Source of the DNA: Escherichia coli
GTDB taxonomy: Bacteria; Pseudomonadota; Gammaproteobacteria; Enterobacterales; Enterobacteriaceae
DNA: 64,000 nt
Direction: 5' to 3' (one strand)
Assembly: GCF_030013595.1 (NCBI RefSeq)
Contig: NZ_CP122768.1
Shown here: positions 4,000-64,000 of the stretch, one piece after another
How positions within the stretch are numbered: position 1 is the stretch's first letter
Layout of the letters: every line of letters starts with the position of its first letter
Made by a program: the position numbers and the translations under genes
Notes under the pieces: model-generated
The model's input: only the letters and a program-made list of their open reading frames with translations
What the model was told of the DNA's origin: nothing
The model's database searches: none

Positions 4000-4638
4000 T
4001 TAGCCTCCCCAATGCCCACGGGCGCTGGAAGAACGACCATAGCCGCCGCGAGAAACGGTTGACGCTTTTTTGGTGGTAAAGCCGCCCGAAGAATAGGACT
4101 CTTTTTTGCCAGAACCGGAGCGCCAGGAGTAATCACCGGAAGTGTTGCGCCAGACGGGGCGCGAAGCAAAAGAGGAACCGCCGCTGTTATACACAAACTG
4201 CTCGTCGCGATCTTTACGAATAACCCGGCTTAACAAAAATCCAGAAACAACCGGGATCCAACTCTGTTCAACGTTGTCGTAGTAACAATTTTCATACTTA
4301 GACTGACAATTCTGCTGAGTCATATTCTTCGGAACATCGGCATAAAACGCCGCTTTGGCGTTGTTCCAGCCATGAGCACAGATATCTGAATTATTACCGT
4401 CATCAATACAATCCTGCACAGTCGAGTAAAACGTTCCGTCGCCGTCGTTATCGACATCGCCACTATCGCCACAACCTTTCAATACGAAAAAAGCGGCACC
4501 GCCCATTAGCGCCAACGTTAAGTATTTTTGTGCGTAACGATTGCGACGCGGTTCAAAAGGATTATTCGGTCTACCAATGCGACTGATCGCTCCGTGACCA
4601 ATTTTACTGTTATTTCTTGATTTGCGTTTTCTGGCCAT
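4000..4638 (-). CDS. yjfM: Uncharacterised protein YjfM (DUF1190 by recollection), 212 aa, Gly/Ser-rich C-terminus
   Basis: Intact ORF in yjf operon; stop within 3 bp of yjfC start. Confidence 0.8.
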   Translation of the reverse strand: MARKRKSRNNSKIGHGAISRIGRPNNPFEPRRNRYAQKYLTLALMGGAAFFVLKGCGDSGDVDNDGDGTFYSTVQDCIDDGNNSDICAHGWNNAKAAFYADVPKNMTQQNCQSKYENCYYDNVEQSWIPVVSGFLLSRVIRKDRDEQFVYNSGGSSFASRPVWRNTSGDYSWRSGSGKKESYSSGGFTTKKASTVSRGGYGRSSSARGHWGG

Positions 4639-6971: not shown

Positions 6972-7680
6972 AATAAATATCCTCCGGCATAGCCGGAGGT
7001 TTTTCAAATGCGCCTGTAAGGCTCTGTTACCAGCCGCGCCCTAACAGGCGCATACGATCTGACATTTGCATTCAACTTCGTTACTTACGGCCCGTAAACG
7101 GGCTGCCCGGATATGGAATCGATAACTGCTCCCCCATTTTATCCTCTTCAAGCTGGTGCTTTATGTAGTCCTGTATCTTCGCCGTGTTCTTACCCACCGT
7201 ATCGACATAGTACCCTCGGCACCAGAACTCCCTGTTTCTGTATTTGAATTTCAAATCCCCAAACTGCTCGTAAAGCATCAGACTGCTTTTCCCTTTCAGA
7301 TATCCCATAAAGCCGGATACGCTCATTTTGGGTGGGATTTCCACAAGCATATGGATATGATCTGCGCAGCACTCTGCTTCCAGAATCCGTACGCTTTTCC
7401 ACTCACACAGCTTTCTCAAAATACTGCCTATCGCCCTACGCTTCTCTCCGTAAAACGCCAGTCTTCGGTATTTCGGCGCAAAAACTATGTGATATTTACA
7501 GTTCCAGCGGGTGTGCGCTAAGCTCTTTTCGTCCCCCATTGGGACCCCCTTTTGATTTCTTGTTTGACACTTGCAGTTGCCAGACCGCAAGGTGTTTTAA
7601 CAAATCAAAAGGGGTTTTAATAACTGGCTCAAAGCTGAAAGCTTTCCGGAACCCCCAGCCTAGCTGGGGGTTTTCTGTGC
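6972..7680 (-). mobile_element. IS200 insertion sequence (IS200/IS605 family), about 707 bp; ends estimated to within roughly 10 bp
   Basis: Contains tnpA (7081-7539); subterminal hairpin 7652-7670 (cccccagc/gctggggg); stem-loop 7546-7614 pairing the Shine-Dalgarno sequence; hairpins 6981-6999 and 7008-7053 at the other end; rlmB-to-yjfI spacing is about 710 bp longer than I expect for the native intergenic region. Confidence 0.8.
7081..7539 (-). CDS. tnpA: IS200 transposase TnpA (Y1/HUH single-strand transposase), 152 aa
   Basis: ORF 7081..7590 trimmed to ATG at 7539 (MGDEKSLAHTRWNCKYHIVFAPKYRR...HIHMLVEIPPK...); HxH motif and catalytic Tyr region recognisable. Confidence 0.9.
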   Translation of the reverse strand: MGDEKSLAHTRWNCKYHIVFAPKYRRLAFYGEKRRAIGSILRKLCEWKSVRILEAECCADHIHMLVEIPPKMSVSGFMGYLKGKSSLMLYEQFGDLKFKYRNREFWCRGYYVDTVGKNTAKIQDYIKHQLEEDKMGEQLSIPYPGSPFTGRK

Positions 7681-20244: not shown

Positions 20245-21582
20245 TTAGTTTGGCAGCGTGCGATCTGGCGTCGTCACCGTACTGGCAGTTTGTGCCGTTG
20301 CACCCTGCGGCGCAGATTGCATCGGATGCGCAAGGAAATAATTACGCAGGCCTTTGTAAATGGCTTCTGCCAGCTGTTGTTGGTAATCGTCGCTCGCCAG
20401 CAAACGTTCTTCGCTGTTGTTGCTGATAAAACCGGTTTCGACCAGTACTGATGGGATATCCGGCGAACGCAGAACGCCAAGGCTGGCGTGTTCTGGTCGA
20501 CGTTTATGTATTTCGCCAATGCGTTGCAACTGGCTGATCATACTGGTCGCTACATCATACCCTACACGCTGGGAATGACCGAACTGTAAATCCAGCACCG
20601 CCTGGCTTAAATAGGGGTCAGACTGGCTGTTCGCCAGCACATCGCCCGCTCCGCCCAATAGCTCCGACTGTTTCTCATGCTGTTCCAGCCAGCTTGCCAT
20701 CTCGCTGTTTGCACGACGGTTAGAGAGCACCCATACGGAAGCGCCAGTCGCACTGCGGTTCGGTGCGGCATCAGCGTGAATCGACACGAGGAAATTGGCG
20801 TTTTGCTTACGTGCCACATCGCTGCGCCCCATCACCGAAATAAAGTAATCCCCATCACGAGTTAAAACGCCTTTAAACATCGGATCGTCATTGAGCAAGG
20901 TACGTAATTTACGCGCAATGGCGATGGTGACATTTTTCTCCCGCGTACCGCCGGGGCCGATAGCGCCAGGATCCTGACCGCCGTGTCCGGCATCAATAGC
21001 GATGATAATTTTATCGCCAGTGTTAGCCGTCGCGCGCGCTGCCGGACGCGTTACCGTATTACTGCTGATAACCCCCGTAGTGCGGTTACTTTCGGTTTTA
21101 AACGGATTGCGCGCCGGTTCGCTGACGCGCGGTGCGACAACCGCAGGTGTTTCAACGCGTTTCGCAACCACGGGCGGCGGAGGAGGCGGTGGCGGCGCAT
21201 CGGCGTTAATCGTAAAGACGACAGTGTAATTGCTGCCATTCTGCCGCTTCACCGCTTCGGTTTTACCATTTTCGGTAAGCTCGACCACCAGCCGTAGCGT
21301 TTGTGCATCTTTAGGCGTTCCAGAGCGAATCGCCTTCACCAGATTATTGCCGCTGAACAACAATGGCAGTCCCTGAATCACGCCCGTTTGTTTGATATCG
21401 AGCGCCACGGTGCGTTTGCTTTGATGGCTAAACGCATAATCAGGATCGCCAATAAAACTCAACGTTATCCGCGCCTGTTGGTTGCCGTTAGAAACCTGAA
21501 TATCAGAGAGCGTCGCGGCGCCCACCTGCGCGCACAGCAGCAGCAACGTCGCTACCAACCAATTTCTGATGCGATACATCAT
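20245..21582 (-). CDS. amiB: N-acetylmuramoyl-L-alanine amidase AmiB, 445 aa
   Basis: ORF 20245..21597 trimmed to ATG at 21582 ([19 protein letters not shown]...); signal peptide; eight consecutive Pro codons at 21172-21195. Confidence 0.9.
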
Positions 21583-33882: not shown

Positions 33883-34860
33883 TTATGCCCGGTCAACGCT
33901 AAAGGCGATGACTTCAGCCAGTGTCTCCGCGCCCAGCGCCAACATCACCAGACGATCAACACCTAATGCCACGCCGGAACAGTCAGGCATACCGACTTTC
34001 AAGGCTTCAATCAGATTCTGGTCAATGGGGTGCTGCGGCAAACCGCGCGCCGCGCGCTTACGGTTATCTTGTTCAAAGCGTTGTTGCTGCTCACGGGCAT
34101 CCGTCAATTCATGGAAACCATTCGCCAGCTCAATACCTTTATAATAAACCTCAAAGCGTTCAGCGACCCGATGATCTTCGGTACTGATTTGCGCCAGTGA
34201 TGCCTGGCTGGCTGGAAAGTGGTACACAAAGGTCGGTTTTTCTTTGCCAATATTTGGCTCTACGCCAAAGGTAAACAGCAATTGTAGAAGCGTGTCGCGG
34301 TCTTCTTCAGTATCGGCAACGTTGCTCAAATCCAGTTTCGCTGCCACTTCCCGCAGTTGCGTTTTGTCGGCAGAGAGTGGGTCAATTTCCAGATAACGCA
34401 AGAAAGCTTGTTGATAAGAAAGGCTTTCTGCTGCCGGGCAGTCCAGCACTTGTTGTAAGAGATCGTCCACCTCGTTCATCAACCGGTACATATCATAGTG
34501 CGGTCGATACCACTCAAGCATAGTGAACTCAGGGTTGTGATAACGCCCCATCTCTTCATTACGGAAGCTGCGGCACAGCTGGAATACCGGCCCACAACCG
34601 GCAACCAGCAGGCGTTTCATATGGTATTCCGGGCTGGTCATTAACCAGAGATTCATCCCCTGCGAATGCCCAGGGCCAACGAAACGTGTCTCAAACGGGA
34701 CCAAATGAATATCGGTTACCGTCGCCTGGCTCATACAAGGCGTCTCCACCTCCAGCACTCCACGATCGGCAAAGAAACGACGGATCTCCGCCATAATCGC
34801 CGCGCGTTTTAATAAGTTAGGAATGGATGCGCTCGGCTGCCAGGATGCCGTTTCGCTCAT
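33883..34860 (-). CDS. epmA: EF-P lysine-34 beta-lysyltransferase EpmA (PoxA/YjeA/GenX; class II LysRS paralogue), 325 aa
   Basis: ORF 33883..34905 trimmed to ATG at 34860 ([30 protein letters not shown]...). Confidence 0.9.
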
Positions 34861-41236: not shown

Positions 41237-41803
41237 TTACTTCACGCGAGAGACGTATTCACCAGAGCGGGTATCCACTTTGATGACTTCGCCGATTTGT
41301 ACAAACAGCGGAACTTTAACCACAGCGCCAGTAGACAGGGTAGCCGGTTTGCCGCCAGTACCTGCGGTATCACCTTTCAGGCCCGGATCGGTATCCACGA
41401 TTTCCAGTTCAACGAAGTTCGGCGGAGTAACGGAGATCGGCTGACCATTCCACAGAGTTACGATACACTCTGCCTGATCCAGCAGCCATTTCGCGTTGTC
41501 GCCAATTGCTTTTGCATCAGCAGACAGCTGCTCGAAAGTTTCGTTGTTCATGAAGTGCCAGAACTCACCGTCGTTGTACAGGTAAGTCAGGTTCATATCG
41601 ACAACATCAGCGCCTTCAGCGGAATCAGTAGATTTGAAGGTTTTTTCTACACGAGTACCGGTCAGCAGACGACGCAGTTTAACGCGAGCAAATGCCTGGC
41701 CTTTACCCGGTTTTACGAATTCACTCGCTTCAACCGCGTAAGGTTCGCCGTCTAACATGATTTTAAGACCAGCACGAAAATCGTTGCTATAGTACGTTGC
41801 CAT
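41237..41803 (-). CDS. efp: Translation elongation factor P, 188 aa
   Basis: Intact ORF ([49 protein letters not shown]...) with the modified-Lys loop KPGKG. Confidence 0.97.
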
Positions 41804-41844: not shown

Positions 41845-42873
41845 ATGGCGCATATTGTAACCCTAAATACCCCATCCAGAGAAGATTGGTTAACGCAACT
41901 TGCCGATGTTGTGACCGATCCTGATGAACTTCTGCGTCTTTTGAATATAGACGCGGACGAAAAACTGTTGGCCGGACGCAGCGCCAAAAAGCTTTTTGCC
42001 CTGCGTGTGCCCCGCTCATTTATCGATCGCATGGAGAAAGGCAATCCGGACGATCCTCTTTTGCGTCAGGTACTTACCTCGCAAGATGAGTTTGTCGTCG
42101 CGCCCGGATTCTCCACCGACCCACTGGAAGAACAGCACAGCGTAGTGCCTGGTTTGTTGCATAAATACCACAACCGGGCGCTTTTGCTGGTCAAAGGCGG
42201 CTGCGCGGTAAATTGCCGCTATTGCTTCCGTCGCCACTTCCCCTATGCCGAAAATCAGGGCAACAAGCGTAACTGGCAAACTGCACTTGAGTATGTTGCT
42301 GCGCATCCGGAACTGGACGAGATGATTTTCTCCGGCGGCGATCCGCTGATGGCGAAAGATCACGAGCTGGACTGGTTGCTCACACAACTGGAAGCCATCC
42401 CGCATATCAAACGTCTGCGGATTCACAGCCGTCTGCCGATTGTGATCCCGGCACGCATCACAGATGCGCTGGTTGAACGCTTTTCACATTCTACGCTGCA
42501 AATCTTGCTGGTGAATCACATCAACCATGCCAATGAGATAGATGAAACATTCCGTCAGGCGATGGCTAAGTTGCGCCGGGTCGGCGTTACTTTGCTCAAC
42601 CAGAGCGTTCTGTTACGTGGCGTGAACGATAACGCGCAAACGCTGGCAAACCTGAGTAATGCGTTGTTCGATGCCGGCGTGATGCCGTATTACCTGCATG
42701 TGCTCGATAAAGTACAGGGCGCGGCGCATTTTATGGTGAGTGATGACGAAGCACGGCAGATTATGCGTGAGTTGCTGACACTGGTGTCGGGATATCTGGT
42801 GCCTAAACTGGCGCGAGAAATTGGCGGCGAACCCAGCAAAACGCCGCTGGATCTCCAGCTACGCCAGCAGTAA
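41845..42873 (+). CDS. epmB: EF-P lysine 2,3-aminomutase EpmB (YjeK; radical SAM), 342 aa
   Basis: Intact ORF; radical-SAM CxxxCxxC (CAVNCRYCFRRHF); divergent from efp. Confidence 0.95.
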   Translation: MAHIVTLNTPSREDWLTQLADVVTDPDELLRLLNIDADEKLLAGRSAKKLFALRVPRSFIDRMEKGNPDDPLLRQVLTSQDEFVVAPGFSTDPLEEQHSVVPGLLHKYHNRALLLVKGGCAVNCRYCFRRHFPYAENQGNKRNWQTALEYVAAHPELDEMIFSGGDPLMAKDHELDWLLTQLEAIPHIKRLRIHSRLPIVIPARITDALVERFSHSTLQILLVNHINHANEIDETFRQAMAKLRRVGVTLLNQSVLLRGVNDNAQTLANLSNALFDAGVMPYYLHVLDKVQGAAHFMVSDDEARQIMRELLTLVSGYLVPKLAREIGGEPSKTPLDLQLRQQ

Positions 42874-43107
42874 CTGATTAAACAGGGAAGTTTAATCTTT
42901 GCACGTTGCATAACCTTTAATTATTCATATACATTGCTGTTATTACTTTTTATATAACCAACACCAATAATTAACCTTTCTTTTCTGTTTATATAGAGTG
43001 AGCACGGCTATTTATGTTATTTTAACAACTATTACTACCAAGCCCATTTATCTGGCTTATAAATTAAAATTAATTATTTAATTGAGAAATGGTTAGGGAG
43101 AACCTAC

Positions 43108-54561: not shown

Positions 54562-54637
54562 GCCCGGATAGCTCAGTCGGTAGAGCAGGGGATTGAAAAT
54601 CCCCGTGTCCTTGGTTCGATTCCGAGTCCGGGCACCA
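54562..54637 (+). tRNA. pheU: tRNA-Phe (GAA)
   Basis: gcccggatagctcagtcggtagagcaggggattgaaaatccccgtgtccttggttcgattccgagtccgggcacca, 76 nt, followed by hairpin ggacctcc/ggaggtcc plus TTTTT at 54653-54678. Confidence 0.95.
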
Positions 54638-54834: not shown

Positions 54835-56097
54835 ATGGCACTGACTGACGCAAAAATCCGGGCTGCAAAGCCCACTGACAAGGCTTATAAACTCACTGAC
54901 GGGGCCGGCATGTTCCTGCTGGTTCATCCTAATGGTTCCCGTTACTGGCGTCTCCGTTATCGTATTCTGGGTAAGGAGAAGACTCTGGCACTTGGTGTGT
55001 ATCCGGAAGTTTCTCTCTCCGAAGCTCGTACAAAACGGGATGAGGCCCGAAAACTGATTTCAGAGGGGATTGACCCTTGCGAACAGAAAAGAGTTAAAAA
55101 AGTTGTCCCTGATTTACAGCTCTCTTTTGAACATATTGCACGACGCTGGCATGCCAGTAATAAACAATGGGCACAATCACACAGCGATAAAGTACTCAAA
55201 AGCCTCGAGACACACGTTTTCCCCTTTATCGGCAACCGGGATATCACAACACTCAATACCCCGGACCTGCTTATCCCTGTTCGTGCTGCAGAAGCAAAAC
55301 AAATTTATGAAATCGCCAGTCGTCTGCAGCAAAGAATATCTGCTGTAATGCGTTATGCCGTACAGTCTGGCATCATCAGATATAACCCGGCTCTGGATAT
55401 GGCTGGTGCATTGACCACGGTAAAACGCCAGCATCGCCCTGCTCTGGATCTTTCACGCCTGCCTGAACTTCTGTCGCGTATTGACGGTTATAAAGGCCAG
55501 CCTGTCACCCGACTGGCAGTTATGCTGAATTTACTGGTTTTTATTCGTTCCAGTGAACTCAGATATGCCCGCTGGTCTGAAATTGATATTGACAATGCCA
55601 TGTGGACTATTCCAGCCGAACGCGAACCTCTGCCAGGCGTAAAATTTTCATACCGGGGCTCCAAGATGCGAACACCACATCTTGTGCCACTCAGCCAACA
55701 GGCTGTAGCCATACTGGCAGAACTTCAGACATGGGCAGGTGAAAATGGTCTGATCTTTACGGGAGCACATGACCCACGTAAACCAATCAGTGAAAACACC
55801 GTAAATAAAGCCCTGAGGGTTATGGGGTATGACACAACCCAGGATGTCTGTGGTCATGGATTCCGGGCGATGGCATGTAGTGCATTAATAGAATCAGGTT
55901 TGTGGTCCCGCGATGCTGTGGAACGCCAGATGAGCCATCAGGAGCGTAATGGTGTACGTGCTGCGTATATCCATAAAGCCGAACATCTGGAAGAACGTCG
56001 ACTTATGCTACAGTGGTGGGCAGATTTTCTGGATGCGAACAGAGAACAATGTATCAGCCCGTTTGAATATGCAAAGATTAACAATCCATTAAAATAG
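54835..56097 (+). CDS. int: P4-type tyrosine integrase of a tRNA-Phe-associated island, 420 aa
   Basis: Intact ORF (MALTDAKIRAAKPTDKAYKLTDGAGMFLLVHPNGSRYWRLRYRILGKEKTLALGVYPEVSLSEARTKRDEARK...) with C-terminal catalytic region (HGFRAMA...RLMLQWW); sits directly 3' of a tRNA. Confidence 0.85.
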   Translation: MALTDAKIRAAKPTDKAYKLTDGAGMFLLVHPNGSRYWRLRYRILGKEKTLALGVYPEVSLSEARTKRDEARKLISEGIDPCEQKRVKKVVPDLQLSFEHIARRWHASNKQWAQSHSDKVLKSLETHVFPFIGNRDITTLNTPDLLIPVRAAEAKQIYEIASRLQQRISAVMRYAVQSGIIRYNPALDMAGALTTVKRQHRPALDLSRLPELLSRIDGYKGQPVTRLAVMLNLLVFIRSSELRYARWSEIDIDNAMWTIPAEREPLPGVKFSYRGSKMRTPHLVPLSQQAVAILAELQTWAGENGLIFTGAHDPRKPISENTVNKALRVMGYDTTQDVCGHGFRAMACSALIESGLWSRDAVERQMSHQERNGVRAAYIHKAEHLEERRLMLQWWADFLDANREQCISPFEYAKINNPLK

Positions 56098-56282: not shown

Positions 56283-56780
56283 TTATTGATAGTGTTTTAT
56301 GTTCAGATAATGCCCGATGACCTTGTCATGCAGCTCCACCGATTTTGAGAACGACAGTGACTTCCGTCCCAGCCTTGCCAGATGTTGTCTCAGATTATGT
56401 CGCTCAATGCGCTGAGTGTAACGCTTGCTGATAACGTGCAGCTTTCCCTTCAGGCGTGATTCATACAGCGGCCAGCCATCCGTCATCTATACCACGACCT
56501 CAAAGGCCGACAGCAGGCTCAGAATACGCTCCAGTGTGGCCAGAGTGCGTTCACCGAAGACGTGCGCCACAACCGTCCTCCGTATCCTGTCATACGCGTA
56601 AAACAGCCAGCGCTGACGTGATTTAGCACCGACGTAGCCCCACTGTTCGTCCATTTCAGCGCAGACAATCACATCACTGCCCGGTTGTATGCGCGAGGTT
56701 ACCGACTGCGGCCTGAGTTTTTTAAGTGACGTAAAACCGTGTTGAGGCCAACGCCCATAATGCGTGCACTGGCGCGACAT
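56283..56780 (-). pseudogene. insB: IS1 insB disrupted by an in-frame TAG stop; also appears to carry a 6-bp in-frame deletion
   Basis: Two ORF-track fragments (56487..56780 and 56283..56486) are separated only by TAG at 56487-56489 where canonical InsB has Trp (..VVIWMTDGW..); fragment 2 lacks two residues relative to my recollection of InsB (HNLNLRQ vs HNLRQ here). Confidence 0.7.
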
Positions 56781-56974
56781 CCGACGCCATTCATGGCCAT
56801 ATCAATGATTTTCTGGTGCTTACCGGGCTGAGAGGCGGTGTAAGTGAACTGTAGTTGCCATGTTTTACGGCAATGAGAGCAGAGATAGCGCTGATGTCCG
56901 GCAGTGCTTTTGCCGTTACGCACCACGCCTTCAGTAGCGGAGCAGGAAGGACATCTGATGGAAATGGAAGCCAC
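56699..56974 (-). CDS. insA: IS1 InsA (transposition inhibitor / N-terminal part of InsAB'), 91 aa
   Basis: GTG start; [42 protein letters not shown]... with Zn-finger Cys pairs. Confidence 0.9.
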
Positions 56975-57264: not shown

Positions 57265-57782
57265 ATGTCTGACCGCGCCACTACCACAGCTTCCTTAACG
57301 TTCGAGTCGCTTTATGGCACACATCACGGCTGGTTGAAAAGCTGGCTGACGCGCAAACTCCAGTCTGCTTTTGATGCAGATGACATTGCCCAGGACACTT
57401 TTTTGCGGGTAATGGTCAGCGAAACGCTCTCGACGATCCGCGATCCTCGCTCCTTCCTGTGCACTATCGCCAAACGCGTGATGGTGGACCTGTTTCGCCG
57501 AAACGCGCTGGAAAAAGCGTATCTGGAGATGCTGGCGCTTATGCCGGAGGGGGGAGCGCCTTCACCTGAGGAACGCGAAAGCCAACTCGAGACCCTACAA
57601 CTCCTCGACAGCATGCTGGACGGGCTAAACGGCAAAACACGTGAAGCGTTTCTGCTTTCGCAACTGGATGGTCTGACATACAGCGAGATTGCGCACAAAC
57701 TCGGTGTTTCCATCAGCTCCGTGAAAAAATACGTGGCGAAAGCCGTCGAGCACTGCCTGCTGTTCCGTCTGGAGTATGGGTT

Positions 57783-57786
<4 letters not shown>
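57265..57786 (+). CDS. fecI: ECF sigma factor FecI, 173 aa
   Basis: Intact ORF ([28 protein letters not shown]...). Confidence 0.95.
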
Positions 57787-61147
<3,361 letters not shown>

Positions 61148-61156
61148 TGTGTTAAC

Positions 61157-61177
61157 GCCCGGCTTGCCGGGCTTTTA
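61157..61177 (+). terminator. Hairpin between fecA and fecB (attenuator-like)
   Basis: cccggc / gccggg stem followed by a T-rich tract, between fecA stop and fecB start. Confidence 0.5.
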
Positions 61178-61191
61178 GCTGGAATGTGATT

Positions 61192-62094
61192 ATGTTGGCA
61201 TTTATCCGTTTTCTTTTTGCAGGCCTGCTGCTGGTGATCAGCCACGCCTTTGCCGCCACGGTTCAGGACGAACACGGCACGTTTACACTCGAAAAAACGC
61301 CACAACGGATTGTGGTGCTGGAACTCTCGTTCGCCGATGCGCTGGCCGCCGTGGACGTCAGCCCGATCGGTATTGCCGACGATAACGATGCAAAACGCAT
61401 CCTGCCCGAAGTGCGTGCGCACCTGAAACCGTGGCAGTCCGTCGGAACGCGCGCGCAGCCGAGCCTGGAAGCCATTGCCGCTCTGAAACCAGACCTGATC
61501 ATTGCCGACAGCAGTCGCCATGCGGGGGTTTACATCGCCTTGCAGCAAATCGCGCCGGTACTGCTGCTTAAGTCCCGCAACGAAACCTACGCTGAAAATT
61601 TGCAATCTGCGGCTATCATCGGCGAAATGGTGGGTAAAAAGCGAGAGATGCAGGCACGTCTGGAACAACATAAAGAGAGGATGGCGCAGTGGGCCAGCCA
61701 GCTTCCCAAAGGGACACGCGTGGCCTTTGGCACATCACGCGAACAGCAATTCAACCTGCATACTCAGGAGACCTGGACCGGCAGCGTGCTGGCCTCTCTG
61801 GGGCTGAACGTTCCCGCTGCGATGGCGGGTGCGTCCATGCCGTCCATCGGCCTGGAGCAACTGCTGGCGGTCAATCCTGCCTGGCTGCTGGTTGCCCACT
61901 ATCGCGAAGAGAGCATTGTTAAACGCTGGCAACAAGATCCGCTCTGGCAGATGTTAACCGCCGCGCAGAAGCAGCAGGTTGCTTCGGTCGACAGTAACAC
62001 CTGGGCGCGGATGCGCGGTATTTTTGCTGCAGAGCGTATTGCCGCTGACACGGTAAAAATCTTCCACCATCAGCCGCTTACCGTTGTGAAATGA
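61192..62094 (+). CDS. fecB: Periplasmic ferric-citrate binding protein FecB, 300 aa
   Basis: ORF 61186..62094 trimmed to ATG at 61192 (MLAFIRFLFAGLLLVISHAFAATVQDE...). Confidence 0.95.
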   Translation: MLAFIRFLFAGLLLVISHAFAATVQDEHGTFTLEKTPQRIVVLELSFADALAAVDVSPIGIADDNDAKRILPEVRAHLKPWQSVGTRAQPSLEAIAALKPDLIIADSSRHAGVYIALQQIAPVLLLKSRNETYAENLQSAAIIGEMVGKKREMQARLEQHKERMAQWASQLPKGTRVAFGTSREQQFNLHTQETWTGSVLASLGLNVPAAMAGASMPSIGLEQLLAVNPAWLLVAHYREESIVKRWQQDPLWQMLTAAQKQQVASVDSNTWARMRGIFAAERIAADTVKIFHHQPLTVVK

Positions 62095-63089
62095 CCGCGA
62101 TAAAACACCCGGTGCTGCTGTGGGGGCTTCCCGTTGCAGCACTTATTATTATTTTCTGGCTGAGTCTGTTTTGCTACTCGGCCATTCCTGTTTCCGGAGC
62201 AGATGCAACCCGCGCCCTGCTGCCTGGACACACGCCAACGCTACCAGAAGCGCTGGTGCAAAACCTTCGTTTGCCACGAAGCCTCGTCGCCGTTCTGATC
62301 GGCGCAAGCCTGGCGCTCGCGGGCACGCTGCTGCAAACCCTGACCCACAACCCAATGGCCTCTCCTTCACTGCTCGGCATTAACAGCGGCGCGGCGCTGG
62401 CTATGGCGCTTACCAGCGCGCTGAGTCCGACGCCGATTGCAGGCTATTCTCTGTCGTTCATCGCGGCATGCGGGGGCGGCGTGAGCTGGCTGCTGGTCAT
62501 GACCGCAGGAGGCGGATTTCGTCATACCCATGACAGAAACAAACTGATCCTCGCGGGTATCGCGCTGTCGGCCTTTTGTATGGGCCTTACCCGCATCACC
62601 CTGCTGCTGGCCGAAGATCATGCTTACGGCATCTTTTACTGGCTGGCAGGCGGAGTGTCCCACGCCCGCTGGCAGGATGTCTGGCAGCTCTTGCCGGTGG
62701 TGGTCACTGCAGTCCCTGTCGTGTTGCTGCTGGCGAATCAACTGAACCTGCTCAACCTCAGCGACAGCACCGCCCATACGCTGGGAGTGAACCTGACGAG
62801 GCTACGTTTGGTCATCAATATGTTAGTGCTGCTTCTGGTTGGTGCGTGCGTCAGCGTGGCAGGTCCGGTGGCATTTATCGGTCTGCTGGTGCCACATCTG
62901 GCGCGCTTCTGGGCAGGCTTCGATCAGCGCAACGTACTGCCAGTGAGCATGCTGCTGGGGGCCACGCTGATGCTGCTGGCAGATGTACTCGCACGCGCGC
63001 TGGCCTTCCCCGGAGATCTGCCCGCAGGCGCAGTGCTGGCGCTGATTGGCAGCCCTTGCTTTGTCTGGCTTGTGAGGAGGCGAGGATGA
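62091..63089 (+). CDS. fecC: Ferric-citrate ABC transporter permease FecC, 332 aa
   Basis: Intact ORF; ATGA overlap with fecB stop. Confidence 0.95.
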   Translation: MTAIKHPVLLWGLPVAALIIIFWLSLFCYSAIPVSGADATRALLPGHTPTLPEALVQNLRLPRSLVAVLIGASLALAGTLLQTLTHNPMASPSLLGINSGAALAMALTSALSPTPIAGYSLSFIAACGGGVSWLLVMTAGGGFRHTHDRNKLILAGIALSAFCMGLTRITLLLAEDHAYGIFYWLAGGVSHARWQDVWQLLPVVVTAVPVVLLLANQLNLLNLSDSTAHTLGVNLTRLRLVINMLVLLLVGACVSVAGPVAFIGLLVPHLARFWAGFDQRNVLPVSMLLGATLMLLADVLARALAFPGDLPAGAVLALIGSPCFVWLVRRRG

Positions 63090-64000
63090 AAATTGCGCTG
63101 GTTATTTTCATCACCCTTGCCCTGGCGGGCTGTGCGCTGTTATCACTCCATATGGGAGTGATCCCCGTGCCGTGGCGCGCGCTGCTGACCGACTGGCAGG
63201 CCGGACGCGAGCATTATTATGTATTGATGGAGTACCGACTGCCGCGCTTGCTGCTGGCACTGTTTGTCGGTGCAGCCCTCGCCGTGGCGGGTGTGCTGAT
63301 ACAGGGGATTGTGCGCAACCCTCTGGCATCACCGGATATTCTCGGCGTTAACCATGCCGCCAGCCTGGTCTCTGTGGGGGCTCTACTTCTTATGCCGTCA
63401 CTGCCCGTGATGGTGCTGCCGCTGCTGGCCTTTGCGGGCGGCATGGCGGGGTTGATATTGCTGAAGATGCTGGCAAAGACCCACCAGCCGATGAAGCTGG
63501 CGCTCACCGGCGTGGCGCTTTCTGCATGCTGGGCCAGCCTGACGGATTATCTGATGCTCTCGCGCCCGCAGGATGTGAACAACGCCCTGCTGTGGCTGAC
63601 CGGCAGCTTATGGGGCCGTGACTGGAGCTTTGTGAAGATTGCCATCCCGCTGATGATTTTATTTCTGCCGCTGAGCCTGAGTTTTTGCCACGATCTCGAC
63701 CTCCTTGCACTCGGCGATGCGCGCGCCACCACGCTCGGTGTGTCGGTGCCCCATACCCGATTCTGGGCTTTGTTACTAGCTGTCGCCATGACATCTACCG
63801 GCGTGGCCGCCTGCGGCCCGATTAGCTTTATTGGTCTCGTGGTGCCGCATATGATGCGTAGCATCACCGGTGGACGTCACCGCAGACTGCTGCCTGTTTC
63901 GGCCCTGACAGGTGCGTTGCTGTTGGTGGTTGCCGATCTGCTGGCGAGAATTATTTATCCCCCACTGGAGCTCCCGGTTGGCGTGCTGACCGCCATTATC
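63086..64000 (+). CDS. fecD: Ferric-citrate ABC transporter permease FecD, partial (runs off window end)
   Basis: ATG at 63086 overlapping fecC stop; translates MKIALVIFITLALAGCALLSLHMGVIPVPW...; no stop before position 64000, so absent from the ORF track. Confidence 0.9.
   Translation, partial: MKIALVIFITLALAGCALLSLHMGVIPVPWRALLTDWQAGREHYYVLMEYRLPRLLLALFVGAALAVAGVLIQGIVRNPLASPDILGVNHAASLVSVGALLLMPSLPVMVLPLLAFAGGMAGLILLKMLAKTHQPMKLALTGVALSACWASLTDYLMLSRPQDVNNALLWLTGSLWGRDWSFVKIAIPLMILFLPLSLSFCHDLDLLALGDARATTLGVSVPHTRFWALLLAVAMTSTGVAACGPISFIGLVVPHMMRSITGGRHRRLLPVSALTGALLLVVADLLARIIYPPLELPVGVLTAII

Follow-up and report, generated by a model that had tools for sequence, protein, structure and literature searches.

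The amiB gene of this Escherichia coli genome encodes eight consecutive prolines, and it lies in the same chromosomal region as efp, epmA and epmB, which encode elongation factor P (EF-P) and enzymes that modify it. We asked what this tract contributes to AmiB and whether its closeness to the EF-P genes has any meaning. The window, that is, the whole stretch of DNA analysed, is 64,000 nucleotides long. Within it, amiB occupies positions 20245-21582 on the minus strand and encodes the cell-division enzyme AmiB, an N-acetylmuramoyl-L-alanine amidase, with 445 amino acids followed by a stop codon. Direct reading of the minus strand from 21195 to 21172 gave CCG CCA CCG CCT CCT CCG CCG CCC, preceded by the Ala codon GCG and followed by the Val codon GTG. 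Translation placed the eight prolines (hereafter P8) at residues 130-137 of AmiB, and the original prediction of eight consecutive proline codons matched the window sequence exactly in both codons and coordinates. The P8 run was beyond chance, since 200,000 shuffles of the AmiB protein produced no run of seven or more prolines, and runs of at least six appeared at a frequency of 1.5e-5. Among the 62 non-overlapping open reading frames (ORFs) of the window, AmiB was the only one with at least three consecutive prolines. A 104-aa ORF on the plus strand (20983-21297), whose translation contains GRRRRRWRR, was rejected as a gene; it mirrors the CCN run antisense to amiB.

The protein was then placed in its family and divided into domains. 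It matched the NCBIfam equivalog NF007751 with 977.2 bits (cutoff 532), residues 1-445 aligning with profile positions 1-445. This full-length match, the AMIN and Amidase_3 domains and the gene neighbourhood identified it as a member of the AmiB family, and the gene is annotated as amiB in a 100%-identical genome and in related ones. The AMIN domain covered approximately residues 24-127 (21202-21513, minus strand), as judged from Pfam and an AlphaFold2 model. The Pfam match (PF11741, residues 27-112) scored 20.6 bits, barely over its cutoff of 20.5, while the model showed an all-beta domain of eight strands over residues 24-127, with mean pLDDT values of 67-93 in 10-residue blocks. The model also contained a signal-like helix at the N-terminus. 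It was poor overall (mean pLDDT 54.8, built on a 30-sequence enterobacterial alignment), and its catalytic domain was poorly modelled owing to this shallow alignment; only the AMIN domain and the linker boundary were therefore taken from it. The Amidase_3 catalytic domain was assigned by Pfam (PF01520, E = 2.8e-48, 164.7 bits) to residues 194-413 (20344-21003, minus strand). Between the two Pfam domains lies a low-pLDDT interdomain linker of approximate limits, residues 128-193 (21004-21201, minus strand), with the proline tract in first place. The last beta-strand of AMIN (118-127) ended two residues ahead of the tract, residues 130-189 had pLDDT values below 50 and no secondary structure, and the catalytic domain began at about residue 194. 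On this basis, the model places the eight prolines as the first element of the AMIN-Amidase_3 linker.

This position suggests a structural role. The tract would open the linker that joins the N-terminal AMIN domain, which targets septal peptidoglycan, to the C-terminal amidase domain. We infer that it most likely acts as a spacer, in which a stiff, extended polyproline-II segment would make the linker project outward from the AMIN domain. A linker between the AMIN and catalytic domains is also found in Pseudomonas aeruginosa AmiB. In the cryo-EM study of the P. aeruginosa FtsEX-EnvC-AmiB complex, this linker of about 40 residues was flexible and unresolved, and it lets the AMIN domain relocate (PMC10214136). 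Our own record of the proline tract comes almost wholly from Enterobacteriaceae.

A misassembled repeat had been named as a finding that would undo the observation. We checked this against other complete genomes, and the tract was reproduced there. A K-12-derived genome contained the same 24 nt, and a 120-nt query that included the tract matched 4,507 complete genomes at an identity of at least 95%. The sampled matches in this band spanned the full 120 nt, except for one 117-nt match, which represented an allele with seven prolines (P7). Misassembly was accordingly ruled out, as independent complete genomes, including the K-12-derived strain, carry an identical tract. In the closest genome, HCP5S3_I2, amiB was 100% identical to that of the window. 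The K-12-derived amiB differed more, with 97% identity in DNA and a Val instead of an Ala ahead of the tract; no functional difference is implied.

We next considered whether the tract needs EF-P, as had been proposed. With eight in-frame proline codons, amiB has the sequence of an EF-P stall motif. E. coli K-12 AmiB has the same domain order and an identical 24-nt tract at the same position (residues 130-137), and its P8 tract is the subject of published profiling, part of it in BW25113, a K-12 derivative. Martens et al. (PMC4402525) named the proline run of amiB as the longest in E. coli, and in their wild-type cells ribosome footprints rose sharply at amiB codons 130-138. For E. coli BW25113, asymmetry scores have been published that cover the PPV motif of amiB and its six overlapping PPP motifs (PMC11611912, Supplementary Data 3). 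These scores were 1.0-1.24 in the wild type and 6.7-10.5 in the delta-efp strain, which bears out the need for EF-P at the AmiB polyproline tract. In the same data set, a delta-efpL strain scored 1.0-2.9, and overexpression of EfpL in delta-efp gave scores of 3.8-6.7 (PMC11611912). Slow Pro-Pro bond formation is thus the cost of the tract: ribosomes queue on it, and EF-P lets them pass, as the published profiling shows. For epmA and epmB mutants, we found no amiB-specific data in the literature covered, and the supplementary material of Elgamal et al. 2014 and Elgamal et al. 2016 makes no mention of amiB. The EF-P-dependent slow spot at the amiB tract is already known, and the observation, correct as it is, is an ordinary one. 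Earlier publications cover the tract, its rank as the longest run in E. coli and the EF-P-dependent pausing on it, and what a genome scan adds here is small.

The PPP motif of CadC, a classic EF-P target, offers a comparison. It likewise consists of consecutive prolines and depends on EF-P, with an asymmetry score that rises from 2.6 in the wild type to 10.8 in delta-efp, against 6.7-10.5 for amiB in the same mutant (PMC11611912). The two differ in outcome: no regulatory consequence of the AmiB stall is known, whereas the stall in CadC reportedly determines how many copies of a regulator are made and has a physiological read-out, as attributed to work by Ude et al. from 2013.

To place the tract in a wider context, we scanned one genome per GTDB species and recovered 80 AmiB loci. 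Nearly all of them came from Enterobacteriaceae, and the genera covered were Escherichia, Citrobacter, Salmonella, Enterobacter, Klebsiella, Raoultella, Kosakonia and others. The results showed that in all 80 records the proline tract stood immediately after an F-T-I-N/D/K-A-D-x motif. The longest uninterrupted run was three prolines in one record, four in 2, five in 12, six in 16, seven in 14, eight in 29, nine in 5 and ten in 1, so that eight was the commonest length (29 of the 80 species-level records). Ala, Ser, Thr or Gln occasionally interrupted the tract. Compared in this way, the sequences indicate that the tract is conserved in kind, though not in exact length, at the AMIN-linker junction across Enterobacteriaceae; it is held proline-rich in this family while its length drifts between about 5 and 10 residues. 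In Escherichia whittamii, AmiB has 455 aa and carries a 10-residue tandem duplication right after the tract (residues ~130-157), indicating that the linker can also lengthen by larger repeats.

Conserved prolines are no less compatible with selection for a translational pause than with a structural role. The ribosome stop could itself be useful, either by giving the AMIN domain time for targeting or folding after it has emerged or by tuning the output of AmiB to EF-P activity. Retention of the tract in all 80 species-level records and the wild-type footprint peak (Martens et al., PMC4402525) are consistent with such a programmed pause, and so is its position. Qi et al. 2018 (PMC5811046) report that polyproline motifs of E. 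coli are enriched between -2 and +9 residues, counted from domain ends; counted from the last AMIN strand, the AmiB tract begins at +3. Like those motifs, it lies just past a domain end, in a linker, and shows gain and loss between strains. AmiB is not mentioned in the main text of that study, however, and the co-translational folding benefit proposed there concerns cytoplasmic multi-domain proteins, whereas AmiB is exported (PMC5811046). When EF-P is present, an asymmetry of about 1.0-1.24 argues for little net loss of downstream ribosomes, and the length of the run (3-10) and its continuity vary widely while the gene is retained. Moreover, AmiB has a signal-like N-terminal helix and is a Sec-exported protein, so its AMIN domain folds in the periplasm and not at the ribosome. 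We consider a programmed pause unlikely, and the structural linker start remains the reading that we prefer.

The tract had also been proposed to vary in length between strains, and this was borne out within E. coli, where P5, P6, P7, P8, P11 and PPSPPP forms were read. Full-length amiB was present in 5,424 of 5,426 complete E. coli genomes. Alleles were counted with allele-specific BLAST queries of 111-129 nt in an identity band of at least 99%, so that the counts are proxies rather than per-genome readings, and they come from a collection of complete genomes that is clonally biased. P8, taken as the remainder after the other alleles, accounted for about 83% (about 4,500-4,550 of ~5,425 genomes), and it occurred in several synonymous codon versions (CCG/CCA/CCT/CCC) that differ between strains while the residue stays Pro. 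The form PPSPPP, followed by Met in place of Val, was matched in 711 genomes (~13%), P6 in 143 (~2.6%) and P5 in 19. P7 and P11 were each found in 1 of 5,425 genomes: the former had lost one CCT from a CCT-CCT-CCT background, and the latter carried a tandem duplication of CCGCCACCG. All length changes were multiples of three (3, 6 or 9 nt) and kept the frame. Over the whole of amiB, 697 genomes were 90-95% identical to the window gene, as against the 711 with PPSPPP. By these counts, the short alleles that are common go together with a diverged amiB haplotype, and the tract varies slowly, mostly along lineages. Variants of amiB encoding 444 aa (two loci) or 448 aa (one locus) kept P8 and had their indels elsewhere in the gene.

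Six tract forms inside one species might point to a contingency repeat, a hypermutable stretch by which AmiB would be switched or tuned from strain to strain. Tandem Repeats Finder (TRF) reported a weak imperfect repeat at the tract (period 9, 2.8 copies, 81% matches, score 36), and perfect codon repeats in the tract of the window reached two units at most. The frame was never lost, the P7 and P11 alleles each occurred once in 5,425 genomes, and the common alleles followed diverged haplotypes. With no long perfect repeat and no frequent or frame-shifting length changes, a phase-variable contingency locus was rejected, and we give the hypermutable repeat hardly any credence. Instead, rare in-frame deletions or duplications of 3, 6 or 9 nt among imperfect CCN repeats produce the length changes, and the tract does not work as a switch. 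The natural allele range from P5 to P11, including PPSPPP, is a modest descriptive addition; the P5-P11 alleles provide a ready-made series for relating run length to EF-P dependence and AmiB function.

One P5 record stood apart. The E. coli 'O157:H7' strain TR01 had the P5 allele and the same flanks as the enteropathogenic strain EPEC E2348/69, unlike the other O157:H7 genomes sampled, which gave 120-nt matches of P8 length. This suggests recombination or a mislabelled record.

We then examined the neighbouring EF-P genes. The gene efp, encoding elongation factor P, was located at 41237-41803 on the minus strand (TIGR00038, 253.6 bits; NF001810, 269.9 bits; also annotated), 20.0 kb from the tract. 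The gene epmB, for a lysine 2,3-aminomutase-like EF-P modification enzyme, was located at 41845-42873 on the plus strand (equivalog TIGR03821, 534 bits), 20.7 kb away, and epmA, for EF-P-(R)-beta-lysine ligase, at 33883-34860 on the minus strand (equivalog NF006828, 604 bits), 12.7 kb away. All three genes named in the original prediction were thus confirmed by equivalog models. Its distance of about 20 kb holds for efp and epmB but not for epmA. Likewise, EpmA and EpmB are encoded in the window, while the hydroxylase EpmC is encoded elsewhere: a tblastn search of the window for epmC returned noise only (best E = 0.25), and in the K-12-derived genome a distance of about 1.95 Mb separates epmC and amiB. 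To speak of the whole EF-P modification pathway was an overstatement, because EpmC is absent from the window.

With amiB, efp, epmA and epmB all within 21 kb, it could be supposed that functional clustering has brought a target and its helpers together. The interval between amiB and efp, however, is occupied by over 20 unrelated genes, some on each strand, among them frd, ampC, mscM, psd, rsgA, orn and queG. Targets, moreover, are everywhere, PP being present in 22 of the 62 non-overlapping window ORFs, and the remote position of epmC speaks against such clustering as well. The arrangement is also easily broken, as cadC adjoins the region in a related genome and is displaced by an island here. 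A functional link between the amiB tract and the nearby EF-P genes has no support, and adaptive co-location is in our view extremely improbable; their closeness reflects ordinary inherited gene order.

The genes on the other side of amiB raise one further possibility. Directly downstream, on the same strand, lie mutL, miaA, hfq, hflX, hflK and hflC. If EF-P or its beta-lysylation were limiting, ribosomes stalled in amiB could leave RNA polymerase running ahead, Rho could terminate transcription, and less read-through into mutL-miaA-hfq-hflXKC would follow. These genes carry internal promoters of their own, which speaks against the proposal. In addition, the C/G ratio exceeded 1.4 solely over the tract and was about 1.0-1.3 just downstream, with no clear rut-like (C-rich, G-poor) region. 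Polyproline stalls without EF-P do allow Rho termination in reporters and in cadA (Elgamal et al. 2016, PMC5021804), and the amiB stall in delta-efp is strong (PMC11611912), but amiB is absent from the candidates and supplements of the former study (PMC5021804). Polarity of this kind is the sole reading with a wider consequence, as it would make mismatch repair, tRNA modification and Hfq levels depend on the state of a translation factor; we judge it to be quite unlikely.

Taken jointly, a structural linker start, slow translation relieved by EF-P, drift in length and ordinary inherited gene order very probably account for the tract.

The gene order of the region was also compared with that of HCP5S3_I2. 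This genome has the order tsaE-amiB-mutL-miaA-hfq-hflXKC, in a region 99.99% identical to the window. By BLAST, the two sequences consisted of collinear blocks with at least 99.9% identity, separated by three structural differences. The first is a segment of about 700 bp of the IS200/IS605 type (window 6978-7680), which is missing from HCP5S3_I2; it includes a transposase ORF of that family between yjfI and rlmB (7081-7590, minus strand; NF033573, 144 bits). The second is an ISVsa5 (IS4-like) insertion beside epmB in HCP5S3_I2, whose site in the window, at about 43036-43045 and just downstream of epmB, is without the insertion. The third follows tRNA-Phe (54562-54637). In the window, the stretch from this tRNA gene to position 64000 includes an island with an integrase gene (54835-56097), an IS1 fragment (56699-56974) and fecI, fecR, fecA, fecB and an ORF resembling fecC (57265-63089). 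In HCP5S3_I2, cadCBA-dtpC and a gene for a lysine-tRNA ligase come after the same tRNA-Phe, and cadC does not lie inside the window.
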